64,000 nucleotides of DNA from Sulfurospirillaceae bacterium (lineage in GTDB: Bacteria; Campylobacterota; Campylobacteria; Campylobacterales; Sulfurospirillaceae). This document shows, piece by piece, positions 7,071-55,498 of this stretch. The stretch is from positions 32,001 through 96,000 of the forward strand of contig JAWVXD010000001.1 in the NCBI GenBank assembly GCA_033723415.1, in the 5' to 3' direction. The notes under the pieces are model-generated. The model had not been told where the DNA came from and made no database searches. It worked only from the letters and a program-made list of their open reading frames with translations. Numbering within the stretch: the first letter of the stretch is position 1; each line of letters begins with the position of its first letter. Both the position numbers and the translations under genes were made by a program.

Positions 7071-7080
7071 TTCTTGACCT

Positions 7081-9810: not shown

Positions 9811-10107
9811 TTATATAGCATTTGCCAATGAAAAAAGTAATCTTATAGCAAACAGATCTAAAAACTGCAAAGCTAATATAATAATTATAGGAGACAAATC
9901 AATTCCTCCTATAACGGTTGGAATAAACCTTCTGACAAGGGCATATACTGGTTCAGTCAGTCTCGTCAGTACTTGTACGATTGGATTATATGGATCAGGT
10001 CTTACCCAAGTAATCAGAGCAGCTATGATAACAACCCAGATATATATATTTATGACCATATGTAGGATTTGAGCTACAGCTTCAATCAATGTGGATAATA
10101 CTATCAT
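9811..10107 (-). CDS. yggT: YggT family membrane protein
   Basis: WVRPDPYNP...LTEP...GIDLSP. Confidence 0.9.
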   Translation of the reverse strand: MIVLSTLIEAVAQILHMVINIYIWVVIIAALITWVRPDPYNPIVQVLTRLTEPVYALVRRFIPTVIGGIDLSPIIIILALQFLDLFAIRLLFSLANAI

Positions 10108-11267
10108 TTTACGATCTCCTTTATATAATTTTTGATCAATGGATCAATAACAGCGAGTTTTGGTCCATTGTTACTAAATTCTTCATCAATGTTCTTAACC
10201 AGTAAGAGACTATCGATTTTTTCTTTGATCTCTAATATTGTACTTTCTTCTTCCGTATATAACTTTGCAATCTTACCGATTTTTGCATCTTTATATCCGA
10301 TACGTTTTGCTAAATCACTATCATCAAGAAGTAGTATGTGTGATCTGTTAACAAATTTCAATTTGTCAATATCAAACTTTTCAGAAGATTTTGACAGTGA
10401 TTCTATCTCAAACCAATCAAGTGCTTCTTCCAGGGTAAAGATCTCTTTTGGAGTTTTATTCCCAAGGAGTATAAGATAATTGACTATGGCTTCCGGTAAA
10501 TATCCTTGATCTAGCAGCCATTGTACACTGCTGCCATCATCTCTTGCGCTCATCTTCTTCCCATCATTATCTAATATAGCAGGAAGATGTGCATAAGTCA
10601 CACTTTCATTATATCCCAATGATTGTCTGATATGCTCCTGTTTTGGAGTGTTTGAGAGATGATCTTCTCCTCTTATAATATATGTTATACCTTGAAGCAT
10701 ATCATCTATTGCACAGGCAAAATTATATGTAGGATATTTGTCGGTATTCATGATGACAAAACTATCTAAACTCTCTAAACTCTCTTGCTCAAAAGTTAAA
10801 TCACCTTTGACAGCATCGCTAAAAGAGATATCCTGATCTGGTTTTTTTATCCTGATTACAAATGACTTAGTACTTTCCAATATCTCTTTTGAACTTAAAT
10901 TTTCACATTTACCGTCATATTTGTAAGCTTTTGATGATTCTTTTGCCATCTTTTCTTTTGCTTCAAGTTCTTCAGGTGTACAAAAGCACATAAAAGCTTT
11001 TTTTTCATCGAGCATTTTTGAAGCAAATTGTAAGTGGTACTTGAAATTATTACTTTGGTAGTATAAATCATCATAAGATATGCCACAAATTTTGAGAATA
11101 TTTAATATATCTTGATCTTTTCCTTCAATATTCCTTGCCTTGTCTATATCTTCGATTCTCACTATAAATTTATCATTTCTTTGTCTCGCACATATAAAGT
11201 TTATGATAGCAGCCCTAAGGTTGCCTATATGCATATCGCCTGTTGGCGATGGAGAGAATCTAAACAT
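10104..11267 (-). CDS. gltX: Glutamate--tRNA ligase (GluRS2-type paralog), apparently shortened/degenerate
   Basis: RFSPSPTG, HIGN, IRGEDH; KMSAR instead of KMSKR; only 387 aa. Confidence 0.8.
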   Translation of the reverse strand: MFRFSPSPTGDMHIGNLRAAIINFICARQRNDKFIVRIEDIDKARNIEGKDQDILNILKICGISYDDLYYQSNNFKYHLQFASKMLDEKKAFMCFCTPEELEAKEKMAKESSKAYKYDGKCENLSSKEILESTKSFVIRIKKPDQDISFSDAVKGDLTFEQESLESLDSFVIMNTDKYPTYNFACAIDDMLQGITYIIRGEDHLSNTPKQEHIRQSLGYNESVTYAHLPAILDNDGKKMSARDDGSSVQWLLDQGYLPEAIVNYLILLGNKTPKEIFTLEEALDWFEIESLSKSSEKFDIDKLKFVNRSHILLLDDSDLAKRIGYKDAKIGKIAKLYTEEESTILEIKEKIDSLLLVKNIDEEFSNNGPKLAVIDPLIKNYIKEIVK

Positions 11268-18813: not shown

Positions 18814-18827
18814 TAAAAGGTAACGTT

Positions 18828-19712
18828 TTGAGTACTGAAAATACAAAAGAAAAATCATACAAAAAACCGCTCAGTGAAGGGAGAAGGACATTTTTAGTTG
18901 CTACTAGAAATATCGGTCTAGCGACATTGGGAGGTTTGGTCTGGAGTGCGTATGTTGATGAGGTGAAGGCAAATCAGCTTTTGCTTCGCCCTCCTGCTGC
19001 ATTGAAAGAAGATGATTTTCTAAAAACTTGTATCAAATGCGGACTATGCGTGGAAGCTTGTAGGAATAGAGAAGGAAATATCATTTATGATGAAAACGGA
19101 AAGAGGATAGGAACGAAAGATCCTACCTTGAGACTTGCAAAACCGGGTGACAATAAGCCTTTGGGCACACCGTTTTTTATTGCAAGGCAAAATCCATGTT
19201 TTATGTGCGATGATGTTCCTTGTGCTCCTGCTTGCCCAAGCGGTGCATTGGACGTACTTAAAATTACAAATAAAAAAACCAAAAGATTAGATATAAATAT
19301 GGCACAAATGGGTTTGGCAGTTATAGACAAACATAGCTGTATCGCATATTGGGGATTGCAATGTGACGCATGTTACAGGGCATGTCCTCTTATGGGCAAA
19401 GCCATAACTCTTGATATGGAGATGAACAAACGAACAGGCAAACACGCCTTTTTGCAGCCTGTTGTTCACAGTGATGTTTGCACAGGTTGCGGTTTGTGCG
19501 AGCATGCTTGTGTAACAAAAAAAGCTGCTATATTTGTTTTACCAAGAGAGATCGCCATGGGAGAAGTAGGAAGTCATTATGTGCAAGGGTGGAATGATAA
19601 AGATCAGCAAAGAGTAAAAGATGCGGGATCTATTCATACCGTCACAAAGAGAAGTCAAGAAAAAGCAATCGACAAATTGAATGATATAGGAGGGCTGTTA
19701 GATGATCAATAA
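18828..19712 (+). CDS. napG: Ferredoxin-type protein NapG
   Basis: RR leader, LRPP, four Fe-S Cys clusters. Confidence 0.95.
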   Translation: MSTENTKEKSYKKPLSEGRRTFLVATRNIGLATLGGLVWSAYVDEVKANQLLLRPPAALKEDDFLKTCIKCGLCVEACRNREGNIIYDENGKRIGTKDPTLRLAKPGDNKPLGTPFFIARQNPCFMCDDVPCAPACPSGALDVLKITNKKTKRLDINMAQMGLAVIDKHSCIAYWGLQCDACYRACPLMGKAITLDMEMNKRTGKHAFLQPVVHSDVCTGCGLCEHACVTKKAAIFVLPREIAMGEVGSHYVQGWNDKDQQRVKDAGSIHTVTKRSQEKAIDKLNDIGGLLDDQ

Positions 19713-20535
19713 CAATAAATTTCTAATAGCACGAAGAATCGCTCAAATCAGCTTTATCTTCCTTTTTTTTGCCGGTAATTATTTTGGTTGGAACATCCTC
19801 AAAGGAAATCTTAGTTTTTCCTATGTTTTTGGTCTGATCCCACTCAGCGATCCATATGCTATTATTCAAATGCTTGTAGCCGGAGCCAGTATTGCGTCCA
19901 ATGCATTGATAGGTGCGGCTATAATATTTTTATTTTATGCATTGCTTGGAGGTAGAGCTTTTTGCTCTTGGGTATGTCCTGTTAACATCATCACAGATGC
20001 TGCAAACTGGTCAAGAAGAAAGTTTGGTTTTGATTTGATTGCCAAAAAACAACCATTAAGTAGAAATGTGAGATATTGGATCTTGATTATTAGTCTTGTT
20101 ATCTCATATTTCTTAGGAATAGGAGCTTTTGAGTTCGTATCCCCGGTCTCTATGGTCCATAGAGGGATCATATTTGGAATCGGTTTTGGCGTAGCAACGA
20201 TCATCATACTTTTTTTATTTGATCTTTTTGTGCTTAAGAACGGATGGTGTGGACATTTATGCCCACTTGGTGGATTTTATTCGATCATCAGTAAATTCAG
20301 GCTTCTAAAGGTAAAACATGACAGTAGTGTTTGCACTGCCTGTATGAAATGCAAAGTCGTGTGCCCTGAAGATCAAGTTTTGAGTATGGTCGCTAAAGAA
20401 TCTACTCCAGTGCTTTCGGGAGAATGTATAAATTGCGGTAGATGTATAGATGTATGCGATGACAACGCACTTGGCTTTTTTTTAAAAATAAATCAAAACA
20501 ACAAAGAAGGAGAAATCAATAATGAAAAAAATTAA
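19702..20535 (+). CDS. napH: Quinol dehydrogenase membrane subunit NapH
   Basis: CSWVCP and CGHLCP motifs, two C-terminal 4Fe-4S motifs. Confidence 0.95.
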   Translation: MINNNKFLIARRIAQISFIFLFFAGNYFGWNILKGNLSFSYVFGLIPLSDPYAIIQMLVAGASIASNALIGAAIIFLFYALLGGRAFCSWVCPVNIITDAANWSRRKFGFDLIAKKQPLSRNVRYWILIISLVISYFLGIGAFEFVSPVSMVHRGIIFGIGFGVATIIILFLFDLFVLKNGWCGHLCPLGGFYSIISKFRLLKVKHDSSVCTACMKCKVVCPEDQVLSMVAKESTPVLSGECINCGRCIDVCDDNALGFFLKINQNNKEGEINNEKN

Positions 20536-21145
20536 TAAGATCACTATTAGTCTTATTGCTTTTGGATTATTTGCGGCGGGTTGTGCAGTAAGTAATGGTT
20601 CCGTAAGTGATACGTCACTAAGTTTAAGAAAAGTAAATGTTCAAAATGAGAATAGCATCAAGCTGCAAAATGTCAGTTATGAAAAAGCTGCCCCGGGTAC
20701 TGCGAAGCTGATCGAGCGTTCTTATGACAATGCGCCTCCGTTGATCCCGCACAGTGTTGACGGACTTGTTCCGATCACTAAGGATAACAATGCATGTCTG
20801 GGATGTCATATGCCGGAAGTCGCTGCTAGCTTAAATGCTACACCTATTCCAAAATCACATTTTACTAATTTTAGACCTTTAGAGTCGATTACAAAAAATG
20901 GGCAATTGGTTAAAAAAGGTACAATTGTTGCCAAAGCAAATAATGGAAGCAATGATGTTTATGCAACTTATACTCATGGAAAATTGTATGCGGGAAGATT
21001 CAACTGTACACAGTGTCATGTGCCTCAGTCTAATGCACAACCGTTAGTACGTAACACATTTAAACCAGATTATATGAATAAAAGTCAGATGAAGAAATCT
21101 AATCTTATCAATACATATGATCAGGGAATAAATACAGTACAATGA
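20522..21145 (+). CDS. napB: Diheme cytochrome c NapB
   Basis: APPLIPH, CLGCH, CTQCH. Confidence 0.95.
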   Translation: MKKINKITISLIAFGLFAAGCAVSNGSVSDTSLSLRKVNVQNENSIKLQNVSYEKAAPGTAKLIERSYDNAPPLIPHSVDGLVPITKDNNACLGCHMPEVAASLNATPIPKSHFTNFRPLESITKNGQLVKKGTIVAKANNGSNDVYATYTHGKLYAGRFNCTQCHVPQSNAQPLVRNTFKPDYMNKSQMKKSNLINTYDQGINTVQ

Positions 21146-21627
21146 TAAAACGAAGAGAGCTATTTAGCTCTCTTGCTAATATTAATAAAAAGCAAGAAGC
21201 TAATAGCATAAGACCGCCATATTTTTTAGATACATCTTTATTTGAAACAGAGTGCATAAAATGTGATGGGAAATGCTCATTTGCTTGTGAAGAAAAAATC
21301 ATTACTATAAAGGATGACAAAACACCGATTTTGGATTTTTCCAAAGGCGGTTGTACGTATTGTGATGCGTGTGCCAAAGCTTGTGATTTCGGGGTTTTAC
21401 AAATAAGTAATAAATCAAATATCCAAGCTAGAGTCGAGATAAATATGATAAAATGTATAAGTTGGGATAAGGTCATGTGCTTTAGTTGCAAAGAAGTTTG
21501 CTTAGAGAACGCGATTCCTTTTTTGGGTCTGTTTAGACCTGAAATCGACAGTGAAAAATGTACAGCTTGCGGCTTTTGTATAAACGTTTGCCCGACAGAT
21601 GCAATCGAGGTTTTAAAATGGCAGTAA
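21142..21627 (+). CDS. napF: Ferredoxin-type protein NapF
   Basis: RRELF, IRPP, multiple CxxCxxC motifs. Confidence 0.9.
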   Translation: MIKRRELFSSLANINKKQEANSIRPPYFLDTSLFETECIKCDGKCSFACEEKIITIKDDKTPILDFSKGGCTYCDACAKACDFGVLQISNKSNIQARVEINMIKCISWDKVMCFSCKEVCLENAIPFLGLFRPEIDSEKCTACGFCINVCPTDAIEVLKWQ

Positions 21628-21881
21628 AATTTATATCTACGATAAAAGAAAACGGAATCGGAGGATGGTGTATTGAGCTTGTAGATACGCTTGATGATAC
21701 CAGAGTCTTATGCAATAGTATCGAAGAATACGAAAGTGCAATAGAAAAAATGGGAGAAGAGTATGCCAATGATATAGAAGTGCAATGGCATAAAGATGAC
21801 AATGTGACAAAAATCCATATGGATGAAGTCAGAATAGAAATTTCAAAATTTCAAAAACTAATTGATAAAAAGATGATCTAG
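21618..21881 (+). CDS. Acidic hypothetical protein inserted between napF and napL
   Basis: ATG at 21618 overlaps napF end; stop abuts napL start; 87 aa. Confidence 0.7.
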   Translation: MAVKFISTIKENGIGGWCIELVDTLDDTRVLCNSIEEYESAIEKMGEEYANDIEVQWHKDDNVTKIHMDEVRIEISKFQKLIDKKMI

Positions 21882-22831
21882 TGAAAAAATATTTTTTATT
21901 TTTTTTATTTTTTTTAGTTGTATTGCAAGCCAAAGAGCTTACACCTTCATACACGCTCAAAGTCAACGGTGATATTGTTGACATGATGATAAGTTCGGGT
22001 AAAATATATGTCACCACTGACAGCAGCAGTGTTGATATATTTGACATAGCAACTAAAAAACTTGAAAAAGTTATAAAATTTAAAAAAATAAAAGATTTTT
22101 TAGGTGAATTATCGGATGTCAGAATCTATTCTGTAGATAAAGACAAAGATAGGCTATTGTTTGTCACACAAGGAGAGAAGGGATATAGCAGAATTTATTT
22201 GTATCAAGAGGGTGTGAACAAACTATTGCTTGATGAAAATAGTGAAATGTCTATCATGAAAGCTATGTTCTTATCGGGTAACAAGATTATTTTTGCAACT
22301 TTGAGTTCACAAGTGGTTGTGTATGATATGAAAAATAAAAAAATTGTTTACAACAAACAGATTTCAGAATCTAAATTTTCAGATTTTGTCTTAAATATCA
22401 TGAAAACCAAGTTGCTCTTAGCAGATGAGAGCGGTGATACGAAACTCGTAGATGTAAGTGATGGCAGTATAGAGAAGGTGTTTAAAGGTAAAAATTTAGA
22501 TAATGTCTATCAAATCGATTATAAAGATCATGTCATCGCAACTGCGGGAAAAGATAGACGATGTGCGGTATATTGGGATAACAATTCACATAGCTATTAT
22601 AAGAGTAGCAACTTTCTGATATACAGCGTAGGTCTTAGTCCATTTGGAAAATTATGTGCGTATGCAAGTGATGATAAAAACAATATTGTAGTTTTTGAGA
22701 CGCAAAATGGAGAAGATCTATATAAATTAAGCGGAAATGAAAGTCCGATTTCAAATATAGTTTTTGCAGATAAAAACAGTCTGTTTACCACAAACAAGAA
22801 TAAGATAAAATTTTGGAAATTATTTAACTAG
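21881..22831 (+). CDS. napL: Periplasmic WD40/beta-propeller protein NapL
   Basis: Signal peptide, WD-like repeats, position in the Campylobacterota nap operon. Confidence 0.85.
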   Translation: MKKYFLFFLFFLVVLQAKELTPSYTLKVNGDIVDMMISSGKIYVTTDSSSVDIFDIATKKLEKVIKFKKIKDFLGELSDVRIYSVDKDKDRLLFVTQGEKGYSRIYLYQEGVNKLLLDENSEMSIMKAMFLSGNKIIFATLSSQVVVYDMKNKKIVYNKQISESKFSDFVLNIMKTKLLLADESGDTKLVDVSDGSIEKVFKGKNLDNVYQIDYKDHVIATAGKDRRCAVYWDNNSHSYYKSSNFLIYSVGLSPFGKLCAYASDDKNNIVVFETQNGEDLYKLSGNESPISNIVFADKNSLFTTNKNKIKFWKLFN

Positions 22832-22843
22832 AGGAGTAATGTA

Positions 22844-23236
22844 ATGAATGTATCAAGTATAGTAGTGCAAGTTTTGCCAAAAAATTTGGATAGCGTAATA
22901 GATGATTTAAAAAATTGCGAAGTATGTGATTATCATTTTCATGATGAAAAAGGGCGTATTATAATTACAATCGAGGCTGAAAATGTATCTGAAGAACTAA
23001 AAAAATTAAAAGTTATAGAAGATATACCAAATGTAATATCAGCAGATATGCATATGAGTTACAGTGAAAATGAACTGGATGAGCAGATAAAAGTTCTAAA
23101 TAATGCAAATGCAGTTCCAAAAGTACTAGATCAAGACACGACGAAGATCGACCCTTCAAGCGTAGTATATGGCGGAGATCTTAGAAAAAAAGATATATAT
23201 GCCTTTGCAGAAAAAATGAATGATGATATAAAATAG
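22844..23236 (+). CDS. napD: Tat proofreading chaperone NapD
   Basis: MNVSSIVV...GRIIITIE. Confidence 0.92.
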   Translation: MNVSSIVVQVLPKNLDSVIDDLKNCEVCDYHFHDEKGRIIITIEAENVSEELKKLKVIEDIPNVISADMHMSYSENELDEQIKVLNNANAVPKVLDQDTTKIDPSSVVYGGDLRKKDIYAFAEKMNDDIK

Positions 23237-45291: not shown

Positions 45292-47535
45292 TTGAGTGAG
45301 AGTAAAGATTTTTTACGCACAATCGTAGAAGAGGACTTAAAAGCCGGTAAATATAAAAGTATTGTTACCAGGTTTCCTCCCGAGCCAAATGGATTTCCCC
45401 ATATCGGACACGCTAAGTCTATCTATATCAATTTCGGTATTGCCCGTGACTATCAGGGGCACTGCAATTTAAGGATGGACGACACCGATCCGACCAAAGA
45501 AGATATGAGATATGTAGAAGCGCTTAAAGACGCCGTGACTTGGCTTGGATTTGAATGGGGAGAGAGTGTTTATTTTACTTCCGATTATTTTCCTAAGTTG
45601 TATGCTTATGCACAAAGTCTCATCAAAATGGGCAAAGCTTATGTTGATAGCCTTAATGAAGAAGAAATACGCGAATATCGCGGTAGCGTCACGGAAGCCG
45701 GAAGACGCAGCAAGTATGCAAATCGTAGTATCGAAGAAAATCTTGACCTTTTTGAGCGCATGAAAAACGGTGAGTTCAAAGATGGCGAACACGTCCTGAG
45801 AGCACGGATCGATATGAGTGCGGCAAACATGAAGATGCGAGATCCATTGCTGTACCGTATCCGACATGCGCATCATTTCAGAGCCGGGGATGAGTGGTGT
45901 ATCTATCCGATGTATGATTTTGCTCACTGTTTGTCTGATTATATCGAGGGCGTCACGCACTCGATCTGTACGCTGGAATTTGAAAACAATCGTGATATTT
46001 ACGACTGGGTACTTGACACGCTCGCTCTTGAACCGCCGCGTCCGTATCAGCATGAGTTTGCACGCCTTGGGATCAATTATACCGTCATGAGTAAAAGAAA
46101 GCTTTTAGAACTCGTCGAGGGCGGATATGTCAACGGCTGGGATGACCCACGCCTTCCTACCATCGCCGGATATAAAAGAAGAGGGTACACACCTGAGTCT
46201 ATCTTGAATTTTTGCGACCAGATCGGCATCGCAAAAGCAAACTCGATGGTCGATGTGGCGCAGCTTGAATTTTGTATCAGAGATGATCTAAACCAAAAAG
46301 TGCCTCGTGTGATGTGTGTGCTTGACCCGCTCAAAGTAACCATCGAAAATTATGACGGTTTCGAGGAGATCGATGCATCTTACTATCCTCATGATGTTCC
46401 CAAAGAGGGTTCGAGAAAGCTACCTTTTTCACGCGAGATTTACATCGAACGCGATGATTTTATGGAAAATCCACCTAGTGGATACTTCCGTCTGACACCC
46501 GATCAGCCCGTGCGACTAAAACATGCTTATATCATCTCGTGCACCGAAGTCATCAAAGATGCGAACGGCGCGATAGTGGAGATCAAAGCCAAGTATCATC
46601 CTGATTCAAAAAGCGGATCCGATACCAGCGGTATCAAGGTCAAAAGCGCGATTCACTGGGTAAGTGGAGCGCACGCCAAAAAAGCGGAAGTCAGACTGTA
46701 TGAAAGATTGTATAAATCAGAAGCTCCAGAGGGTCTAGAAGATCTAAATCCCGATTCGCTTCGTATCATCAAAGATGCGCTTATTGAACCCGCCATCGTC
46801 ACCGAAAAGCCAGATGTCAGATTTCAATTTGAAAGACAAGGGTATTTCTATGCCGATCCGATTGATCATAGCGATGAAAACCCGGTGTTCAACAAAATCG
46901 TAGGACTCAAAGACTCTTGGAGTAAAAAAACCGAACCAAGCAAGCATACGATGAAGACTCCGGTGAAAAAAGAACAAGTAGAGGGTGAAACAGCTCCTAT
47001 GAGCGCTCAAGAACAAGCACGCTTTGACAAATATACAAAAGAGCTTGGACTCAATCATGAGATCGCCAATATCTTAGCGCGCGATGAACAGCTCGCATCA
47101 TTTTATGAAACCGCACTGTCCGTTTTAAACAGTCCTCTAAGCTTGGCAAATATCACGGCCAATGAAGTAGCCAGAGAGTTAAAACAATCAAACGCTCTTA
47201 CATTTGATGCAAAGCAAGTGGCGCAGTTGGTCGGCATGGTCGATGATGGCACGATTTCAAATAAAATCTCTAAAGAAGTGTTTGAAGAGATGGCAAAATC
47301 GGGTAAAAACCCGATCCAAATCGTCAAAGAAAAAGGCCTAGAGCAGATCAGTGATCCGGCTGAGATAGCATCCGTCATCGATGCGATCATCGCAAAAAAC
47401 CCGGACAACGTCGCCAAATACAAAGATGGAAATACGAAACTTTTAGGATTTTTTGTAGGGCAAGTGCTCAAAGCAATGGGCGGTAAAGCCAACCCGACAG
47501 TCGTGAATGCTCTTGTTTTAGAGAAGTTAAGTTAA
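45292..47535 (+). CDS. glnS: Glutamine--tRNA ligase with C-terminal GatB/YqeY domain
   Basis: RFPPEPNG, HIGH, MSKR, QFERQGYF; C-terminal GFFVGQVLKAMGGKANP. Confidence 0.93.
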   Translation: MSESKDFLRTIVEEDLKAGKYKSIVTRFPPEPNGFPHIGHAKSIYINFGIARDYQGHCNLRMDDTDPTKEDMRYVEALKDAVTWLGFEWGESVYFTSDYFPKLYAYAQSLIKMGKAYVDSLNEEEIREYRGSVTEAGRRSKYANRSIEENLDLFERMKNGEFKDGEHVLRARIDMSAANMKMRDPLLYRIRHAHHFRAGDEWCIYPMYDFAHCLSDYIEGVTHSICTLEFENNRDIYDWVLDTLALEPPRPYQHEFARLGINYTVMSKRKLLELVEGGYVNGWDDPRLPTIAGYKRRGYTPESILNFCDQIGIAKANSMVDVAQLEFCIRDDLNQKVPRVMCVLDPLKVTIENYDGFEEIDASYYPHDVPKEGSRKLPFSREIYIERDDFMENPPSGYFRLTPDQPVRLKHAYIISCTEVIKDANGAIVEIKAKYHPDSKSGSDTSGIKVKSAIHWVSGAHAKKAEVRLYERLYKSEAPEGLEDLNPDSLRIIKDALIEPAIVTEKPDVRFQFERQGYFYADPIDHSDENPVFNKIVGLKDSWSKKTEPSKHTMKTPVKKEQVEGETAPMSAQEQARFDKYTKELGLNHEIANILARDEQLASFYETALSVLNSPLSLANITANEVARELKQSNALTFDAKQVAQLVGMVDDGTISNKISKEVFEEMAKSGKNPIQIVKEKGLEQISDPAEIASVIDAIIAKNPDNVAKYKDGNTKLLGFFVGQVLKAMGGKANPTVVNALVLEKLS

Positions 47536-47581: not shown

Positions 47582-47610
47582 ATCATATAAAACAGTCTCG
47601 TTACTATATC

Positions 47611-47731
47611 ACTGTTCGTTCAATTTATCAGTTTTATAACTTATTGGTATGATTAAATAAAAAGCATAGATGAAATTTGGTATACTGTTCCGGAATTACC
47701 CCGTAAAGGTGGAAACTGTCCCCGGAATTAT
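47611..47731. repeat. Repeat copy 1: ACTGTTCGTTCAATTTATCA (47611-47630) plus CTGTCCCCGGAATTAT (47716-47731)
   Basis: Both blocks recur exactly at 50396-50415 and 50470-50485. Confidence 0.85.
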
Positions 47732-47757: not shown

Positions 47758-49494
47758 CTAAGCTTTGTTGTGTATATATTCATTTAATTTTAAGCAATCC
47801 ATTCTATTATCATTTTGCCTAGTGAAAAATTGATTATTAGTTAAATCTGCAATTAGTCTTATCTTGTCTGAAATTTCACAAAACTTTGTATCTTCTTTTA
47901 AATGTTGTCCTATTTTTAATTTTCCTAATCTTGCTGAAAAATTTTCTTTCATACAGTCTCTAACTATACCTAGAATATAGTCTGGGATGGATAGTAAAAT
48001 ATCATCTTTTCCACTTTTTTCTATTACTGTATTTGGGAAAAAAACACCTCTAATTAAAACAATTTGTTTTAATTTATTTAATGAAATTTTTGAGTTTTCT
48101 TCAAAAGTGATAATGTTTGTATTGTTTTTATATCTTCTTAATATATTTTTCATCAAACTATCAAATAAAGCATAGTAGTTGTTTTGGTAAACTTCTTTGC
48201 CCATTTTATCCATTGATTCATTTTCAGACTTAAACATTAATTGTGCTTCTATATTTAACTCTCTCAATATTGGTATATATTTTTCTTTCACCATTGTATT
48301 ATCTTCGCAATAATGGAAAAGTTTGCTTCTTTGTGTATCTGTCAATCCATTTCTTAGATCGGAAACCAAATCATTTTGTAATGAAGTTAATTTACCAGAT
48401 ATAACATTTTTTAAAAAATCTCCACTTATTGAAACAAGTGATAAAATTAATGTTTTTTTATCTGGTGTCTCACTTTCATCTATATAATGATATATAGATA
48501 AATTGTTCTTTTTCTGTGGAGCACTCATATAAATATTATCCAAACATAGATCATTATCTTCTAATATATTTATGAAAACTGATTGGTACTTTTTACCTAA
48601 TGATTTTTCAATTCCTACTATATAAACAATTTTCCCATATATAGCTCTTAGCTTAGGATAGCCATCTTCAATATTAAAATAATTTTCTGGATATTTGTTT
48701 AAATAATATAATTCCTGTCTAATCTTTCTTTTCATTATTTTGGGAACTCTTGGATATTGGTCATTTGATATACTCAGACCTGTAACATACTGAGGTTGCC
48801 CATATTTTAAATTGATTGTTTTTTCTTCATTGATTTCAAAAGTATATTTTTCAAAAATTTCTTTAATTTCATCTATTGAAGGAAAATTATCGATATCAGA
48901 TGAAAAAGTTATGTCATCACTATATCTACTTATTCCTACTTTATATTTTTCAGCCAAAAATTTAAGATCTAAGTCTAAATCAAAACAATATAAATTCGCT
49001 AAAATTGGGCTTGTATTAAAACCTTCATACAATATATCATTGTATGTACACAGATTCGAAAATATATCTGCTCCTGTGTCGGAAAAACCTAGTTTTAAAA
49101 AAGCATTTTTGACGCCTATTTTTGTAATTGATTTAAAATAATTCTTTATGTCAAGTTTGAATAGATACTTTTTATTTAAATGTTCTTGTGCATTTGTCAA
49201 TACACCTCTTTTCTTGATGAATCCATGTGCTATATCACTGACAAAAACATCTTTATCTTGTTTTATTTTTTGCTCTATAATATGTAGCAATTCCTTATAA
49301 AATAGATTGTATGGAGTATTGATTTTTATAACTTCTCTATATTTTTTTATACGTTTTGGGTTTTTTTTGGGTATATCAAAAAGACTAATATATGTTTGAT
49401 TTTTTTCATTGTTGCAGATAGAGTTAAGAAAATCTATTGAGGTATTAAAGCTTTTTGAGATTATCTCTAGTGAGTTTAGCTGATTTAAATTCAT
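47758..49494 (-). CDS. Retron-type reverse transcriptase fused to a C-terminal RNase H-like (DUF3800-like) domain
   Basis: AHGF, region X NAQEH (aa 101), LDIKNYF, GFNTSP, YSDD (aa 191-194), region Y VTG (aa 237); C-terminal YIDES (D339) ... PDY (D505). Confidence 0.88.
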   Translation of the reverse strand: MNLNQLNSLEIISKSFNTSIDFLNSICNNEKNQTYISLFDIPKKNPKRIKKYREVIKINTPYNLFYKELLHIIEQKIKQDKDVFVSDIAHGFIKKRGVLTNAQEHLNKKYLFKLDIKNYFKSITKIGVKNAFLKLGFSDTGADIFSNLCTYNDILYEGFNTSPILANLYCFDLDLDLKFLAEKYKVGISRYSDDITFSSDIDNFPSIDEIKEIFEKYTFEINEEKTINLKYGQPQYVTGLSISNDQYPRVPKIMKRKIRQELYYLNKYPENYFNIEDGYPKLRAIYGKIVYIVGIEKSLGKKYQSVFINILEDNDLCLDNIYMSAPQKKNNLSIYHYIDESETPDKKTLILSLVSISGDFLKNVISGKLTSLQNDLVSDLRNGLTDTQRSKLFHYCEDNTMVKEKYIPILRELNIEAQLMFKSENESMDKMGKEVYQNNYYALFDSLMKNILRRYKNNTNIITFEENSKISLNKLKQIVLIRGVFFPNTVIEKSGKDDILLSIPDYILGIVRDCMKENFSARLGKLKIGQHLKEDTKFCEISDKIRLIADLTNNQFFTRQNDNRMDCLKLNEYIHNKA

Positions 49495-49503
49495 ACACTA
49501 CAC

Positions 49504-49585
49504 AGCAATATGGGTAAATAGGTAGATTATAATTAACTTTATAACGAGCACGAATCGCACTCCACATTTATTCCCCATATTGTTC
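49504..49585 (-). ncRNA. Candidate retron msr-msd ncRNA (compact)
   Basis: Terminal inverted repeat CAATATGGG (49506-49514) / CCCATATTG (49574-49582) extended by TAAAT/ATTTA, enclosing hairpins GAGUGCG-AUU-CGUGCUC and UUAUAA-N6-UUAUAA; directly upstream of the RT. Confidence 0.65.
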
Positions 49586-49589
49586 CTTT

Positions 49590-49619
49590 ATTATATCAGT
49601 TTTTTGGTTTGATACACAA
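49590..49619 (-). promoter_or_regulatory. Sigma70 promoter of the retron
   Basis: Minus strand TTGTGT-N18-TATAAT with extended TGn; predicted start falls at the 5' arm of the inverted repeat. Confidence 0.65.
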
Positions 49620-49722
49620 CGATTCGGAGTAATTCCTGCGAAACTATACCCAATTATTGATGGTAGCTAAAAGGGAATTGTCCCAATTTTCTGCTACTAA
49701 AACGCTACTCTACGCATCCTAA

Positions 49723-50013
49723 TCACTTAAACTTTTTATAAACTTGTGAATGTGTGCCTAGCATCACAAGGTAAAGAAAACTTGCATCTACTTTAAACAC
49801 CAATAACCAATCATTTTTTACATGAAGAGATTCAAACTCTTTCATATCACCTTTTAACGCATGCCTTTGATATATACTATCTATCGCTTCATTGGATTGT
49901 AGTTTGTTGATCATTATCTTTAAGATTTCAAAGTCACTCTTCGTGTATTTTCCACACTTTTGATCTCTCAAAATATCTTTTTTAAAAGATTTTTCAATCT
50001 TAATCTCTAGCAC
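49723..50013 (-). CDS. YafQ/RelE-family mRNA interferase toxin
   Basis: FKKD, HALKG, HVKNDWLLVF, LGTHS motifs. Confidence 0.88.
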   Translation of the reverse strand: MLEIKIEKSFKKDILRDQKCGKYTKSDFEILKIMINKLQSNEAIDSIYQRHALKGDMKEFESLHVKNDWLLVFKVDASFLYLVMLGTHSQVYKKFK

Positions 50014-50015
50014 AG

Positions 50016-50273
50016 TTAGATACCTAAATCGTCAAATAATTCATCGCTGTTTTTATAACTCTTTGTGTTGGTATCTGTTTTTATATTTTTGACTCTTGAG
50101 ATAAGTTCATCACTAGGTTCAATTGAGAGTTCAAAAGGTATTTTTCGCTCCATGGCAACTTTTGCAAGAAATATATTGACACCGTCTGCAAAAGTAAGAC
50201 CGAGCTTAGAAAATACCTCTTTTGATTCATTGTAAAATTTATCTTCAACTCTTACACTTGTTTGCATTTTCAT
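50016..50273 (-). CDS. RelB/DinJ family antitoxin
   Basis: SVRVE RHH start, LGLTFADGVNIFL, IPFEL, ELFDDLGI; ATG at 50273 after AAGGA. Confidence 0.88.
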   Translation of the reverse strand: MKMQTSVRVEDKFYNESKEVFSKLGLTFADGVNIFLAKVAMERKIPFELSIEPSDELISRVKNIKTDTNTKSYKNSDELFDDLGI

Positions 50274-50291
50274 TTTATATCCTTTGAGAAA

Positions 50292-50321
50292 ATTATACAC
50301 CAATCGGTGTACACAAGTCAA
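50292..50321 (-). promoter_or_regulatory. TA promoter (TTGACT-N18-TATAAT) with operator palindrome TACACC-N4-GGTGTA (50296-50311)
   Basis: Read directly; typical RHH autorepression arrangement. Confidence 0.7.
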
Positions 50322-50395
50322 GATAATTTAACGACTGAGGGGAAATCGAGTAAATCAAGGGACGGATACCGCATTATTAAATAGTCTAAAATGTA

Positions 50396-50485
50396 ACTGT
50401 TCGTTCAATTTATCAATTTTAAACTATTAAATAAAAAGGTAAATCTATATAACATTATAATTAGGTATCCTGTCCCCGGAATTAT
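50396..50485. repeat. Repeat copy 2 (matches 47611-47731)
   Basis: Exact 20-bp and 16-bp blocks shared with copy 1. Confidence 0.85.
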
Positions 50486-50495
50486 ACCTGATTTG

Positions 50496-51200
50496 TTAGG
50501 AGAGAACATGTTCTACCATCTCATTAAATGCCTGCTTATCATCAACATCGCTGTATGCGAAGTCAGCTAAAATAGATAATCTAAGGAGTGGAATATATTC
50601 AGAAGATGCTTTGTTGATTTTGTAATCCATTAACAACTTTTCATCTATAGAACCTTTAATGCAGAACTCTTTATTCTCTGGATCAAACTCTACTAGTAGA
50701 TAGTTCGGTCCCCAGTTAGTCCATATTTCGTATTTATGAAAACATGGTTCATAAATAGCAAACTGAAATACTAATTGTCGAAAAATACGATGAGAGAGCT
50801 CGACAAATAAATGTGCAATATCAACTGCATCTTCAACTTTTTCTCGATCAGGTATAATAAAATCGTGTTCAAGCATATTGCGAATTTTATTGAGACGACT
50901 TAGAATGCGAGGGGCTATTAACCCGACTTCCTTAATACGTTCAATTTTTTTGGGAAACTGCTTTTCTTTTTTTAAGCCCAATACATTGACAATCGCTTCA
51001 ACCTGACAATCAATAGCTCGTTTAGCATTAGTTAATGCATTGATATTGCCATGATTTGAGTTTTGTTCTAAATCTTTCTCAGCAATCTTCAAAAAGTCAT
51101 GAGATGTTGTTTCAAATGGAAATTCTACATCAGTATATGCACATCTCTCAAACTCTTGTAGGATATGTTTATGCTGATGTAGAAATTGTTTGAGCTTCAA
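50496..51200 (-). CDS. HEPN-like protein (cassette gene)
   Basis: RNMLEH (Rx4H) and NAKRAIDCQVE helix; TTG start after AGGAG. Confidence 0.6.
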   Translation of the reverse strand: MKLKQFLHQHKHILQEFERCAYTDVEFPFETTSHDFLKIAEKDLEQNSNHGNINALTNAKRAIDCQVEAIVNVLGLKKEKQFPKKIERIKEVGLIAPRILSRLNKIRNMLEHDFIIPDREKVEDAVDIAHLFVELSHRIFRQLVFQFAIYEPCFHKYEIWTNWGPNYLLVEFDPENKEFCIKGSIDEKLLMDYKINKASSEYIPLLRLSILADFAYSDVDDKQAFNEMVEHVLS

Positions 51201-51207
51201 GGTTGTC

Positions 51208-51276
51208 TCCTAACGTTTGAGTTGAGAAATATTTGAGCCGTAGGGTCAAATATTTCTCTCCAATGATTTGTTATAA
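51208..51276 (-). other. attC recombination site (69 bp)
   Basis: Minus strand TTATAAC-AAATCATTGGAGAGAAATATTTGA-loop-TCAAATATTTCTCAACTCAAAC-GTTAGGA. Confidence 0.85.
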
Positions 51277-51277
51277 A

Positions 51278-51463
51278 TTAGTCTGTATCATTTTCTTCTG
51301 AATTTTCTATTATTAAGTCTTTATATTTTGTTATATCTTTTTCATAACCTTCAGTAGTATATTGAAGCTTTGGTATGCTTACATCAAAATTTGGTTGATC
51401 ATCATTTTGTTCTGAAGCATTTTCTTGACTATTATTTTGCTCTTCTGAAGTATTTTCACTCAT
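51278..51463 (-). CDS. Small acidic hypothetical protein (cassette gene)
   Basis: 61 aa, AAAGGA SD, stop adjacent to the attC inverse core. Confidence 0.6.
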   Translation of the reverse strand: MSENTSEEQNNSQENASEQNDDQPNFDVSIPKLQYTTEGYEKDITKYKDLIIENSEENDTD

Positions 51464-51483
51464 TTGAAATTCCTTTTTAGTAT

Positions 51484-51987
51484 TTATTTTATTTTGTGTA
51501 AATAATTATATGAAATATATCCTGTTGTTATCATTACTAATGCTACAGAGGCAATAGTTAAAATATATCCATATCTTAAATTTTTAGCTTTCTTTAATAT
51601 TATTTCATTGTATTCTGAAACTGCTTCTTTCATACTTTGAGATAAAGCAAATTGTATGGTTATTAATTTTTCTTCTTTAAACAAATCAAATACCTCACTT
51701 GTTAAAGGTAATTTTGGTACAGTTGTTAATCTTAATGATAAGAAATAAAATAACCATGCTAAAAATAAAAAAATAAAACTTAAAGATACAGGTATAAAAA
51801 CGAAATTATTTATTTTATATAAGCTATCAATGACTAATATCTTTAATAAAGCACTATAAATAGTTAATAAAATATATGTAAATCGTAATTGATTGTTTGC
51901 TTTATCATCTAATCGTTTAAACCTATCCACTTCCATATTAAATAAATCTTTTGAATATTCATAAAATAAAGTCCATTTTTTTTCCAA
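51484..51987 (-). CDS. Three-TM membrane protein (Pycsar-effector-like topology; cassette gene)
   Basis: LDDKA before TM1-TM2 and KKAKNLR before TM3; AAGGA SD with TTG start. Confidence 0.55.
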   Translation of the reverse strand: MEKKWTLFYEYSKDLFNMEVDRFKRLDDKANNQLRFTYILLTIYSALLKILVIDSLYKINNFVFIPVSLSFIFLFLAWLFYFLSLRLTTVPKLPLTSEVFDLFKEEKLITIQFALSQSMKEAVSEYNEIILKKAKNLRYGYILTIASVALVMITTGYISYNYLHKIK

Positions 51988-52004
51988 TAATATTCCTTAT
52001 GTAT

Positions 52005-52073
52005 TTATAACGGGGGCGCGGGTGTTCAGCCCGCCCCCCCCGTTATCTCGGATGCGTAGCGTCCGAGATAACG
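52005..52073 (-). repeat. Two abutting GC-rich hairpins forming a gene-less mini-cassette
   Basis: CGTTATCTCGGATGC-GTA-GCGTCCGAGATAACG (52041-52073) and ATAACGGGGGCGCGGG...CCCGCCCCCCCCGTTAT (52007-52046). Confidence 0.7.
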
Positions 52074-52132
52074 TTTGAGTTCACCAATAAATGCCCTGTG
52101 GGCATTTATTGGTGTGCGACGTTTTGTTAAGT
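52066..52132 (-). other. attC recombination site (67 bp)
   Basis: Minus strand ACTTAAC-AAAACGTCGCACACCAATAAATGCCC-ACA-GGGCATTTATTGGTGAACTCAAAC-GTTATCT. Confidence 0.88.
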
Positions 52133-52137
52133 TTTCT

Positions 52138-53991
52138 TTAGTCATAAGATCGCTTTAATCGAGCAACTCTATTGATTTGAGTCAATATTGATACATTCCT
52201 TTGTTCTTGATCTTTTGAACTAGTTTTATCTTCAATAAACTCCGAAAGGCTTTGAAATGCTGGAAATTTTTGCATTGCTTTTTTGGTACCTACTGTAGAG
52301 AGTTTTTTTACAGAACCTAAAAGTGGAATTATTATCCCTAGTCCATCTTCACCTAAATCCAAGAGATGCTTAGTAACATTTTTTTCGCTTAATGCTTTTT
52401 CAACTTCTGTATTGTAGATAGAGATTCTTTTATTTCTTTCATCTATTTCCAATAAAGACAATTCAGAAAATAATGAATTCATACCATTACGAATAACACT
52501 ACTTGAAATTTCATCTTCAAAATCGTGAATAGGAATATAGTCATTGACATCGAATGATGAAATCAAATCTATACTTAGATTTTTTCGGTGTTGGATATAC
52601 TCTGAATCAAAAATGTTTCCAAGGTTTTCAAGATTTGTTGTTTTAAAAAAGTTAAGCATATTTCCCATTATCAGCGCATATGGATGATCAGAATATTGTT
52701 GTCCATTAATAAAAAAAGGAAAATATGTTGCATCCAAAGCGTGAGCTAAATGAATTTGATCACTATTGACAATAAACTCAAATTCAATTTCTTCTTTATT
52801 CTTTGATGGAAGACCTTCGATTATAGGTTTGTTTACTCCGTATCTTGAAATACCCATCGGACCAGCTTCGTTTAGTGTGTCGAGACTTGCTCTTAACGCT
52901 TGTTTTGGCCAAAGTAAGAAATTGGAAACTGTATTTATGTCTTTACCTGTGATAGTAGCTATCTCTTGAATTAATGGAAATAATAATTTTGTTAATTCTG
53001 GATTACTAAAAAGGTATGATTTATTCATTGCTACTAGATCAATAGCGCATAGTGCGGATAAAGCTCTTCTGCTTACAACCGCTGCAGAGTTCGTTTGAAA
53101 TGCTTCATTCAAAAAGCCATAATCTAATCTTGACTCTGGTTGCATGTTTAAAATAATCAATCTTCCCCGTTCTACAAGATGTAATATTTCAGCCTTACTT
53201 ATTTTCTGATCATGTAAAAAAGTACTCATATCTTCGGCTAGAGGAAGAACACAATAAACAATATCATATAAAAGTAGATGATTTCGTAGATTGGCATTTT
53301 GGAATTTTGAAAAATTTACTAAGCATGATGTTTTATTAGGCTTTATAAAATACAAATCATCTTTTGAAACAGTTCCTTCATATATTCCTTCTACATTGTC
53401 AAACCAAAAACGTTCGTCTCGTTCCAAAAATGTGCAATTCAGTCTTTGTCGTGATTTTGAAGATAGAATATGAAAAACTTCATCTTGAGGTTGAAGGATT
53501 ACCTCTATATCACCCTCTTGTTTGAGTTGAAAAGAATATGGACTTTTCAAAGCATCTAATGTTTTTTGAAGATCATAGTATTCAGTCTCAGTAAGCTTTT
53601 CAATATACTTAACTATGATGGTGTGGTTTTGATGATCTTCGTTGATTCCACTTATTTTGATTTTAGGGTGTATAGAAAAAATATGATTATAGATTTGATG
53701 CATTGTTAAAGGAAAACCTTCAAACTTCGATGGTATATCTTTGTCTTCTATGCATTTTAGTTCCGCAGTATAATTACTTGGTTCACGATCTACGAGTTGT
53801 ACAGGGGCAGTTACAAACTTTATTTCATGGTTGAATATCTTTTTCAATTCGAAAAAATCTTTGATGTCCTCAGCTACAAAAATTTGAAACTCAAGATCAT
53901 TTAATTTGAATATTCTTGTATTTATGTATGGATATCTAGATCTAAAATTAAGATCAATTCTTCTACACCATCCATCATATTGCAAAGACAT
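52138..53991 (-). CDS. Hypothetical protein, 617 aa (cassette gene)
   Basis: Long ORF with AAGGGA SD, ends 5 bp before attC; no motif recognised. Confidence 0.75.
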   Translation of the reverse strand: MSLQYDGWCRRIDLNFRSRYPYINTRIFKLNDLEFQIFVAEDIKDFFELKKIFNHEIKFVTAPVQLVDREPSNYTAELKCIEDKDIPSKFEGFPLTMHQIYNHIFSIHPKIKISGINEDHQNHTIIVKYIEKLTETEYYDLQKTLDALKSPYSFQLKQEGDIEVILQPQDEVFHILSSKSRQRLNCTFLERDERFWFDNVEGIYEGTVSKDDLYFIKPNKTSCLVNFSKFQNANLRNHLLLYDIVYCVLPLAEDMSTFLHDQKISKAEILHLVERGRLIILNMQPESRLDYGFLNEAFQTNSAAVVSRRALSALCAIDLVAMNKSYLFSNPELTKLLFPLIQEIATITGKDINTVSNFLLWPKQALRASLDTLNEAGPMGISRYGVNKPIIEGLPSKNKEEIEFEFIVNSDQIHLAHALDATYFPFFINGQQYSDHPYALIMGNMLNFFKTTNLENLGNIFDSEYIQHRKNLSIDLISSFDVNDYIPIHDFEDEISSSVIRNGMNSLFSELSLLEIDERNKRISIYNTEVEKALSEKNVTKHLLDLGEDGLGIIIPLLGSVKKLSTVGTKKAMQKFPAFQSLSEFIEDKTSSKDQEQRNVSILTQINRVARLKRSYD

Positions 53992-54212
53992 TTAATCCCT
54001 TTATGAACTTAACTATTTATTAACACCATTATTATAGTTATATCATACTTAAATTAGCTCTAAACTCAACGATATGTCATATTTTAACCATATATGCAAT
54101 GTTTAGTATACTATTTGGCTCAGATAAACTACAATTTTATGATAAAAAGACATCATAGGATATAGGAAATATTTTGCAAACAGTATAAAAAAGCAATCCT
54201 TGTCTTTATGAT

Positions 54213-54293
54213 TCTAATACAACTTCCCAAACAAATCTACATGAAGTAGATAGACTCTCAGATCAAACTCTACTTGATGGTGGTTTTTTGCAT
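54213..54293 (-). pseudogene. Duplicated 3' end of the YgjP-like gene (direct repeat of 57953-58034)
   Basis: First 48 bp identical, then one mismatch and 18 more identical bases, then decaying similarity. Confidence 0.9.
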
Positions 54294-54592
54294 TTCAAGT
54301 AACACACAAAAGGCGAAGATCATTGGCAAGCTAGCAAAGCAATTTGAGATGAGAAAATCTCTGTATTGAGGTGAAATATAGAATTTAGTATACTCTTCTG
54401 GTGACTATTTTAGGTTGGATATTGCAAAGTTTACATCAATATGATAGAATATAAGTTATTGCGGTTAATTTTGCTACTCAATAAAAATTTCTAAGTACAG
54501 TGAAGTGCAAAATACAAATAGTTGAATTATAATTGCTTTTTAGGGTCATTCGAAAATTATGTAATGTGAAATACATGCATAAAAGGAGAAAC

Positions 54593-55498
54593 ATGAGAAG
54601 GCGAAATTTTATTATTTTTACTATATTTCTCCCGTTTTATCTCTATGCTCAAAATTACACTATAGCTTTTGTACAAGATACTATGGCAAATGACTTTAGA
54701 AAAGCACAAGTTTATCAGGTTAAAAAAGAACTACAAAAATACAAAAATATAAATTTTGTTTTTAGTGATGCTCTAGGTCAAACTGCACTTTTGATATTTC
54801 AGTTAGATAAATTTATTGATAAAAAAGTTGATGTGATTATTCTAGGTACAAATGATGGAAATGCGGTTGTACCTTCACTGATAAAAGCACAAAGAGCAAA
54901 AATTCCTGTTATAATCCTCGGCAGAGGTGTAGATACAGATAAATATACTACTTTCATAAATTCCGATAATGTCAAAATAGGACAAATGGCTGGTGACTTT
55001 ATCAGTAGAAAACTAGGGGGCAAAGGAACTATCGTGTTGTTTGAAGGAATAAAGACAACAGATATAGCTGTAGATAGGACAAAAGGTTTTGAAGATGTGG
55101 TTTCTCATCGTAAAGGCATCAAAATCATAAAAGTGACAGGTAACTATCTCAGACGCGACGCGATAATAGCGACAGAAAAGCTCATCGCAAAAGGTATCAA
55201 ATTTGATGCTATATTTAGTGAAAGCGACAGTATGTTAAGTGGTGCTAGACTAGCTATGATCAAGCATGGGATTGACCCTAAAAATATCATATCTATTGGA
55301 TGTGGATATATAAATGAAGCTAAAGTGGCTATTGAAGATGGTTTACAAACAGGATCTATAAAATCTCCCCATGCCGGGCAAGAGGCAGCAAAGATCGCTA
55401 TGGACATTATCAATAAAAAAAATGTAAAAAAACATATCTTAATGCCTATAACGTTAATTACAAAAGATAACGTAGACTCTATAAAGCCGATATTTTGA
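54593..55498 (+). CDS. RbsB/LacI-type periplasmic substrate-binding protein
   Basis: AGGAG + ATG at 54593; MRRRNF leader; SDNVKIG...DRTKGF...ESDSM class I binding-protein pattern. Confidence 0.85.
   Translation: MRRRNFIIFTIFLPFYLYAQNYTIAFVQDTMANDFRKAQVYQVKKELQKYKNINFVFSDALGQTALLIFQLDKFIDKKVDVIILGTNDGNAVVPSLIKAQRAKIPVIILGRGVDTDKYTTFINSDNVKIGQMAGDFISRKLGGKGTIVLFEGIKTTDIAVDRTKGFEDVVSHRKGIKIIKVTGNYLRRDAIIATEKLIAKGIKFDAIFSESDSMLSGARLAMIKHGIDPKNIISIGCGYINEAKVAIEDGLQTGSIKSPHAGQEAAKIAMDIINKKNVKKHILMPITLITKDNVDSIKPIF

Follow-up and report, generated by a model that had tools for sequence, protein, structure and literature searches.

A 64,000-nt stretch of DNA from a Sulfurospirillaceae bacterium (GenBank assembly GCA_033723415.1, contig JAWVXD010000001.1, positions 32,001 to 96,000 of the forward strand), hereafter called the window, very probably holds integron cassettes and attC sites that are genuine, and no integrase gene accompanies them in the window. 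The region from 50.3 to 54.1 kb is best explained as the head of a decayed chromosomal integron, from which the integrase gene intI would have been lost, rather than never having been present. As no integrase gene lies beside the array, it is by definition an attC-site cluster that lacks an integron integrase (CALIN). A first-pass annotation, made from the sequence alone, had proposed such an integrase-less array, and the proposal is now supported by covariance models of the attC sites, by relatives linked to an integrase, by a cassette (A) that is shared with another array, by the rule that relates the two ends of a cassette, and by the lack of an integrase in the window.

In integrons, the bottom strand of attC folds into an imperfect hairpin, which the integrase IntI binds, cutting between the G and the TT of the core site. 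A cassette leaves as a circle by attC x attC recombination and re-enters mostly at attI, and re-insertion leaves each cassette with first bases, starting with TT, that are complementary to its own inverse core. In the window, the array would read from an attI-like crossover (G 54013) into co-oriented, promoterless cassettes, each closed by an attC, with the attC bottom strand being the plus strand of the window. Cassette A lies directly at the attI-like site and would probably have been inserted last. Without intI in cis the array would be frozen, unless an IntI from elsewhere in the genome or from an incoming element acts in trans. The array is part of a 7-kb island between glnS (45292-47535, plus strand) and a periplasmic-binding-protein gene (54533-55498, plus strand). 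The co-orientation described in the first-pass annotation was recovered, with all seven open reading frames (ORFs) of the island on the minus strand: orfA (617 aa), orfB1 (167 aa), orfB2 (61 aa), orfC (234 aa), RelB, YafQ and a 578-aa reverse transcriptase (RT).

Two attC sites were found, both on the minus strand: attC B at 51208..51276 (core GTTA at 51211-51214) and attC A at 52066..52132 (inverse core AACTTAAC at 52126-52133, core GTTA at 52069-52072). The 13-mer AACTCAAACGTTA is present in exactly two copies in the window, one in each site (51211-51223 and 52069-52081, both minus strand). The bottom (plus) strand folds at -14.1 kcal/mol for attC B (51204-51282, z -6.65) and at -18.3 kcal/mol for attC A (52062-52137, z -7.2), and in neither case did any of 200 shuffles fold as well. 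Aligned to the model consensus, both sites have the attC architecture, with an inverse core ending in AAC, a core starting with GTT, unpaired spacers and L boxes. Both bottom-strand folds carry three net extra bases on the 3' arm, which are contiguous and not two separate single bases. This asymmetry was considered as a peculiarity of Campylobacterota sites and dropped, as 22 of 70 other attCs also have three net extra bases.

For the covariance models, a seed pattern was taken from the shared ends of the two sites (TAACAAA, 30-60 bases, AACTCAARCGTTA) and GTDB was scanned with it, one genome per species. The scan yielded at least 123 stretches; the window's own genome is not among the matches listed. 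Among those listed, 120 are distinct; the bottom strand of 101 reaches -7 kcal/mol or better when folded, and by eye most have the classical layout of inverse core, 5-base spacer, L box of the GTTC-AAG type, stem, CTTAAC, 6-base spacer and core. Alignment of 98 of the 101 folding matches (those of loci L057, L071 and L112 being left out as chance matches) gave 82.6% pairing at the 16 outer pairs, compared with 70.8% in shuffles (0 of 500 shuffles as high), and the L-box pairs alternate between GC, AU and CG across the 98 sites, indicating covariation. The model built from this alignment, R1, has only two significant matches in the 128 kb of searched strand, at 51208-51276 (60.5 bits, E 2e-12) and 52066-52132 (39.6 bits, E 3e-7), and none in the nine searched loci whose pattern match looked like chance. 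Because R1 was trained partly on near-copies of attC B, a second model, R2, was built from 60 attC sites that R1 had found in arrays outside the Campylobacterota, none of which matches the seed pattern. The only significant window matches of R2 are the same two stretches (37.8 bits, E 2.6e-7 for attC B; 28.8 bits, E 6e-5 for attC A). Thus, the two hairpins of the first-pass annotation are confirmed to the base, and both are significant with R1 and R2, which are models of this analysis and not that of IntegronFinder.

The type of attC B is found at 82-98% identity in at least 26 loci, all of which bear the titles of Campylobacterota lineages (Arcobacteraceae, Halarcobacter, Malaciobacter, Marinarcus, Sulfurimonas, Sulfurovaceae, Helicobacteraceae and Sulfurospirillaceae), and also on four Aliarcobacter plasmids, while the type of attC A is also present in L034 and L066. 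The two window sites are 858 nt apart, within the 4 kb over which IntegronFinder clusters attC sites. A further attC type, ending in CTCACGA[N]AAAC|GTTA, is common in the arrays of L036, L061, L066, L034 and L058, upstream of cassette starts. R1 and R2 mostly miss this type, and the array sizes given here are therefore lower bounds.

The cassette limits follow from pairs of complementary sequences. Cassette A starts with GTTAAGTT at 54013, with its inverse core AACTTAAC ending at 52126; cassette B starts with GTTATAAAT at 52011, complementary over 9 nt to its inverse core ATTTATAAC (51270-51278); and cassette C starts with GTTAGGAGA at 51214, paired with TCTCCTAAC ending at 50495. All three pairs had been listed in the first-pass annotation and were found where it had placed them. 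In related arrays, 24 of 39 cassettes have an exact run of at least 7 nt between their start and their own inverse core, as compared with 121 of 2440 non-self pairs, the 39 cassettes being the intervals delimited by consecutive model matches. Short runs among the 39 probably mark attCs overlooked by the model. The interval from attC A to attC B in the window itself scores only 5, because a boundary lies in between. The start of cassette A has a further complement in a copy of AACTTAAC at 47526-47533, where glnS ends; it was treated as chance, with about 17 such pairs expected.

Cassette A (52072..54012, minus strand) consists of orfA (52138-53991) and attC A. Window positions 52068-54013 match positions 10000-11945 of L034, a Sulfurimonadaceae metagenome-assembled genome (MAG), with 92.2% nucleotide identity over 1946 nt. 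The homology begins at the G of GTTAAGTT and ends in attC A, so that both limits coincide with the predicted G|TT crossovers. In L034, the same G closes another attC, and a different cassette follows behind attC A; the array has seven attCs, with no integrase in 20 kb. Thus, cassette A is a discrete unit common to two arrays. The 92% nucleotide match suggests that it moved by horizontal transfer across Campylobacterales families, because the closest relatives of the window's glutaminyl-tRNA synthetase (GlnRS) do not exceed 83% amino-acid identity. No core gene is common to L034 and the window, and the transfer therefore remains inferential.

Cassette A is preceded by an attI-like core (54013..54078, minus strand), which ends in AATAAATAG, the last G of which (54013) is the crossover base. 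Heads of arrays were sought upstream of each Campylobacterota array, as the complement of the first inverse core, and the same words stand in front of several junctions, that of the window included. The pattern A[AT]TAAA[TG]AGTT, representing the 12-nt motif AATAAATAG|TT, is found at 16 array heads, these being the window and 15 other Campylobacterota sites. It occurs twice in the 128 kb of the window's two strands, and one copy ends exactly at the first base of cassette A. In L025 (Arcobacteraceae MAG) and L036 (Sulfurimonas MAG), the crossover G is 226 and 275 nt, respectively, from the start of intI, so that the motif lies between intI and the first cassette; it is therefore described as an attI-like core. 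An element upstream of the crossover is conserved, with TATAAT about 18 nt before the crossover, and the TATAAT-containing stretch of the window is in register with it. At 10 of the 16 heads, including that of the window, the bases after the crossover complement, over at least 8 nt, the bases just before the downstream attC-like sequence; L025 and L042 are counted among the 10 from sequence context alone, and L036, whose run lies 40 nt short of the attC, is not counted. The 54013 region may function as attI, and the cassettes may be expressed from a promoter in the attI region. A 25-nt likeness of 54261-54285 to orfC was also seen and taken as chance, as blastx gave no backing for it.

Among 13 chromosomal head sites of other loci, two have an adjacent intI and two are too near a contig end to tell. 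The other nine have no integrase in the 3.7-9 kb fetched upstream, and seven of these nine abut identifiable genes of housekeeping or regulation, for TruD, superoxide dismutase (SOD), YchF, a histidine kinase, PurH, response regulators or RidA. At four integrase-less sites, in L042, L061, L043 and the Aliarcobacter faecis plasmid pAFAEC (L123), homology to the integrase-bearing platforms extends from the crossover across attI and the intergenic stretch and breaks off only 22-87 nt into the 5' end of intI, which looks like integrase loss. The end points in these four are oddly similar for independent deletions. pAFAEC carries three attI-like elements (locus positions 862, 9826 and 12512) within a co-oriented run of eight attCs, with genes for a serine recombinase and a Tn3-family transposase on its flanks; the run carries HNH, DUF262 and DUF2971 cassettes and looks like several integrase-less arrays joined head to tail. 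In L058, a Campylobacterota MAG (2013-7098), an attI-like element is found directly upstream of glnS, which is also a border gene of the window's island. Ahead of this element lie a gene for a ThsB-like TIR protein, with an attC, and genes for a BrnT toxin and a flavodoxin-like protein.

No tyrosine recombinase was found among the 59 ORFs of the window in a Pfam scan, and tblastn of the window with six integron integrases gave nothing better than E 0.77, in agreement with the first-pass annotation. Searches of four non-coding stretches with blastx and tblastn found no intI or cassette pseudogene below E 0.2. On the attI side the window reaches 10 kb beyond the array, and in the opposite direction 50 kb, and within it no intI is adjacent to the attI-like site and array. 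Among the fetched loci, one ORF family is present in nine, with six distinct proteins above the TIGR02249 integron-integrase cut-off of 265 bits. The integrase scores 408 bits in L025 and 415 bits in L036, and an integrase-family protein in L079 is just under the cut-off (255.7 bits). On the strand opposite intI, L025 has four and L036 five co-oriented attCs, which are of the window's type B and face away from intI.

Several observations limit the case for an integron array in this region. R1 and R2 are not fully independent, as both descend from the window-derived seed pattern, a circularity that R2 lessens without eliminating. Neither model finds a significant attC in cassette C (12-12.5 bits, E >1). 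At the head, a profile of the 15 other heads has its best window match at 54010-54073, which is weak (E 0.11-0.17), and the likeness to attI is short, with the sequence further upstream having no blastn match to the intI-linked platforms. Finally, an unconstrained search of the 7-kb island for GTT...AAC pairs with at least 8 complementary bases found 20, compared with 16.8 expected from shuffles, and complementarity alone is thus not above chance. It is informative only because of its position, and the position of the pairs is not chance: one member is set by a model match or a homology break, and the other lies at a cassette start or at the stop codon of the last ORF. The first-pass view of the complementarity as a footprint of IntI-mediated insertion is supported.

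This chance level of complementarity would also be seen if the hairpins were ordinary terminators or repeated extragenic palindromes, an explanation to which we give next to no probability. It would fit with an extra hairpin at 52041-52073 (plus strand) that matches the terminator pattern, and with the results from Rfam, which had no match in the whole window at gathering scores and, in the island at E up to 1, gave only a chance U7 match and no attC family. However, neither attC is followed by a T-run on the coding strand, the outer pairs covary across 98 sites, attC sites occur in co-oriented arrays beside integron integrases, and the L034 homology breaks exactly at the crossover points. A different question is whether an integron platform was ever present here. 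An integrase working in trans could have placed the cassettes directly in a chromosomal site of no special kind, by the non-classical attG route to single attC sites lacking an integrase (SALINs) and to small CALINs. Cassette insertion into genomic attG sites with a GWT consensus has been described and shown experimentally, and small CALINs are proposed to arise in this way (10.1101/2022.09.11.507474, in excerpt). The array is small, there is no intI remnant in the 520 nt upstream or elsewhere in the window, and the upstream sequence is not alignable to intI-linked platforms, all of which would be expected from such an insertion. Nevertheless, the junction has the 12-nt core found in L025 and L036 at the place separating intI from the first cassette, together with the TATAAT stretch in register, and is the best profile match in the window; in addition, the homologies that run through attI into the 5' end of intI in L042, L061, L043 and pAFAEC look like intI loss. 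We therefore consider it unlikely that no platform was ever here, and a decayed integron is favoured over bare genome insertion.

For the protein encoded by orfA, 151 relatives were detected, all annotated as hypothetical, in genera that include Shewanella, Vibrio, Aeromonas, Pseudomonas and Sulfurimonas. No match was found in Pfam, PADLOC or NCBIfam, its Atlas neighbours are all unnamed, and its AlphaFold2 (AF2) model (mean predicted local distance difference test score, pLDDT, 77.3) has no PDB match at E 0.001. Weak matches to PrgH (template modelling score 0.3 on the target) were considered and set aside as not meaningful. Cassette B (51214..52010, minus strand) carries orfB1 (51484-51987), with a membrane-like product, orfB2 (51278-51463), with an acidic one, and attC B; neither ORF has a family match in Pfam, PADLOC or NCBIfam.

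Cassette C (50326..51213, minus strand) begins at the attC B core and carries orfC (50496-51200), whose stop codon is overlapped by the 9-nt complementary inverse core TCTCCTAAC (50495-50503). The attC region that follows is non-canonical, with GTTATAT (50447-50453) or GTTAAAT (50326-50332) as candidate cores. The orfC product has 81 detected relatives in taxa similar to those of orfA, and an Rx4H motif (R107 and H112) that is invariant in 28 sequences. Its AF2 model (pLDDT 89.9) has as top 13 PDB matches HEPN proteins and toxins or uncharacterised proteins of HEPN-like size (E 0.007-0.04, none at E 0.001). Pfam DUF4145, which we take to be a member of the HEPN clan, matches six of the 28 family members below its cut-off. 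A sequence profile of orfC searched against the PDB gave chance immunoglobulin matches only, and there is no match in PADLOC or NCBIfam. On the strength of the predicted fold and the motif, the protein may be HEPN-like and is regarded as a candidate. With respect to occurrence in other arrays, cassette A is found in L034, and a relative of orfC (36% amino-acid identity) lies 1.5 kb from an attC in L076.

Between the attC A core (G 52072) and the start of cassette B (G 52011) is a 61-nt unit without an ORF (52011..52071, minus strand). It comprises an 11-bp hairpin (GTTATCTCGGA / TCCGAGATAAC), the first arm of which opens with the attC A core and the second arm of which closes in GATAAC, and a GC-rich hairpin ending at the G of GTTATAAAT. 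The bottom strand of 52000-52137 folds at -43.7 kcal/mol (z -11.25). The unit has no R1 or R2 match and no second copy in the fetched loci, and no further copy of the GC-rich hairpin was found in 122 loci, by sensitive blastn or in the plasmid collection. Read by the boundary rule, it would be a minimal cassette, with a start and inverse core of its own that are complementary over 11 bases. The complementary pairs that the first-pass annotation gave for cassettes B and C are present, and two features of their limits had been passed over: cassette B starts 61 nt past the GTT of attC A itself, and cassette C is without a canonical attC hairpin.

Behind cassette C, the island continues with a toxin-antitoxin (TA) pair and a retron, which may be further, degenerate cassettes. 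The RelB/DinJ antitoxin and YafQ toxin genes, with their promoter, occupy 49723..50321 on the minus strand (RelB with stop at 50016 and a probable ATG at 50271-50273; YafQ at 49723-50013). Pfam identifies the pair as RelB (E 5.7e-12) and YafQ_toxin (E 8.9e-20), and NCBIfam agrees. The promoter, which has a palindrome (50292-50321), is the best promoter-like site in the island (11/12). The retron module (47758..49620, minus strand) consists of an RT-DUF3800 gene (47758-49494) and an upstream non-coding stretch. The RT was assigned to PADLOC RT-DUF3800_VII-A1 (PDLC02957, E 2.4e-81) as a single gene, with residues 32-562 aligned to positions 55-573 of the 577 in the profile. The upstream RNA, where the msr-msd non-coding RNA with its flanking inverted repeats would lie, folds with z -1.94 and has only short inverted repeats and no Rfam match.

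The two modules are bracketed by a direct repeat of about 110 nt. Copy 1 (50375..50485, minus strand, limits from the alignment) lies inside the attC region of cassette C and is bounded by an imperfect inverted repeat (50465-50478 / 50360-50371). Copy 2 (47585..47731, minus strand), which has an internal duplication, lies behind the attC-like hairpin of the RT gene and beside the glnS terminator. A 14-mer and a 20-mer are exact in both copies, and each is found only twice in the window. No further copy was found in the 122 loci, by sensitive blastn or in the plasmid collection. The repeat may be a small element that targets attC sites.

The repeats flank exactly the TA-retron module, and the chance that only cassettes A to C are integron-derived, with RelB/YafQ and the retron forming a separate 2.8-kb insertion marked by direct repeats of 110-150 nt, is close to even, falling just short of it. 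Consistent with an insertion, no significant attC was found by R1 or R2 behind yafQ or the RT gene, the candidate limits of the TA pair have 6 of 8 complementary bases with a would-be inverse core of AAG and not AAC, and GTT...AAC pairs of such length are at chance frequency in the island. On the other hand, the module has no recombinase of its own, and the RT gene ends in ATACACAAC (47767-47775), followed by an AAAGC spacer and a hairpin. The 35 nt after this inverse core are 86% identical to a compact in-array attC between two cassettes of L043 (15172-15222). The possible start of the retron unit, GTTGTGTAT (49612-49620), is complementary to the inverse core over 9 nt at a distance of 1.85 kb. 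A TA cassette sits first in the array of L025, and in chromosomal integrons TA cassettes usually bring a promoter of their own. Less favourable to cassettes are that the attC-like region lacks a core, with the direct repeat starting where the core should be, and that the TA pair has its own strong promoter. An alternative to a separate insertion is that all six units may be cassettes, with a small element sitting in two of the attCs.

The first-pass annotation had regarded the array, retron and TA pair as a defence hotspot. The VII-A1 retron, the RelB/YafQ pair and the HEPN-like orfC agree with this, whereas orfA, orfB1 and orfB2 match no defence family in PADLOC. The island thus holds a single recognised defence system, an addiction module and a candidate that is HEPN-like, and a defence hotspot is a reasonable guess and not a result.

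The array is of a known type, and what it adds is modest: the attI-like head, the exact limits of a cassette shared with another array, a mini-unit without an ORF and possibly a cassette-borne retron. The window shares with the Vibrio superintegrons, which are sedentary chromosomal integrons, a chromosomal location, cassettes of unknown function, TA cassettes and lineage-specific, very similar attCs. It differs in having 3 to 6 cassettes, at least two attC types within 1 kb and no integrase. Sedentary chromosomal integrons are recognised by tens of cassettes and homogeneous attCs; in the window, the significant attCs number two and differ in type, and there are no more than about six cassettes. 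With the complete Campylobacterota integrons of L025 and L036 the window has in common the attC type (86-94% identity), the AATAAA[T/G]AG|TT crossover core, small cassettes and a TA cassette. Unlike these, in which intI lies 226-275 nt from the crossover, the window has no intI and a periplasmic-binding-protein gene 520 nt away. The definition of a CALIN asks for at least two attC sites and no integrase (PMC9024848, in excerpt), and like that class the window has at least two attCs, co-oriented cassettes and no intI nearby; the attI-like core kept at its head is a feature that the class does not record. In the parts of the sources available, CALINs detected by IntegronFinder are tabulated for Sulfurovum sp. 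NBC37-1 and Sulfurimonas autotrophica (Table 1, PMC10295459), and integrons are listed as present in Campylobacterota (PMC8618304). As in the excerpted account of attG insertions, the window's cassettes lie outside a complete integron and beside housekeeping genes, with the difference that the junction resembles a lineage-specific attI and not a bare GWT site. Integron cassettes are also reported, again in excerpts, to encode defence systems (10.1101/2024.07.02.601719; PMC12614218). The window resembles such bacteriophage resistance integron cassettes (BRiCs) in having a HEPN-like cassette gene in the array with the TA pair and retron adjacent, and differs from them in that none of its cassettes matches a PADLOC family. 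Among the titles and abstract openings listed in literature searches, mostly from non-subscription journals, none points to a Campylobacterota attI, to these attC types or to a retron cassette.

The window is AT-rich (about 30% G+C) and carries housekeeping genes of the Campylobacterales type, including a napAGHBFLD-like cluster and a GlnRS-YqeY fusion. The best non-self matches of the GlnRS, at 83% identity, bear the names Sulfurospirillum, Sulfurovum, Sulfurimonas or Epsilonproteobacteria; the host therefore belongs to a Campylobacterales lineage that has no close named relative in the protein collection searched. The synteny from glnS to the periplasmic-binding-protein gene is absent from all fetched loci, and comparison with an empty site thus gave nothing; L058 has glnS, but with different neighbours. 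A periplasmic nitrate reductase cluster at 15970-23236 has the order napA, two ferredoxin-type genes, napB, a third ferredoxin-type gene, a beta-propeller gene and napD, which fits the Campylobacterota assignment. Besides the full GlnRS-YqeY (45292-47535), there is a second, short class I Glu/Gln-tRNA-synthetase-like gene of 387 aa at 10104-11267 (minus strand), with the catalytic domain only.

A broader picture, which is possible and rather doubtful, is that Campylobacterota share a phylum-wide cassette pool with attC types of their own (82-98% identical, in at least five families). Most arrays would then be integrase-less, attI-headed units with a promoter built into attI, located at varied chromosomal and plasmid sites and needing rare integrases in trans, and the window would be one of these, with its VII-A1 retron a cassette whose attC was invaded by a small repeat element. 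The understanding of how integrons work is unchanged by the array. What it offers is a natural and clean instance of the footprint that integron cassettes leave, in a group other than the well-studied Gammaproteobacteria, as well as candidate defence or addiction genes, namely those of a HEPN-like protein and of a 617-aa family that is widespread in Vibrio, Shewanella, Aeromonas and Pseudomonas. It also provides a candidate attI for the phylum, which would allow integrase-less arrays to be sorted into decayed integrons and genome-inserted cassettes.

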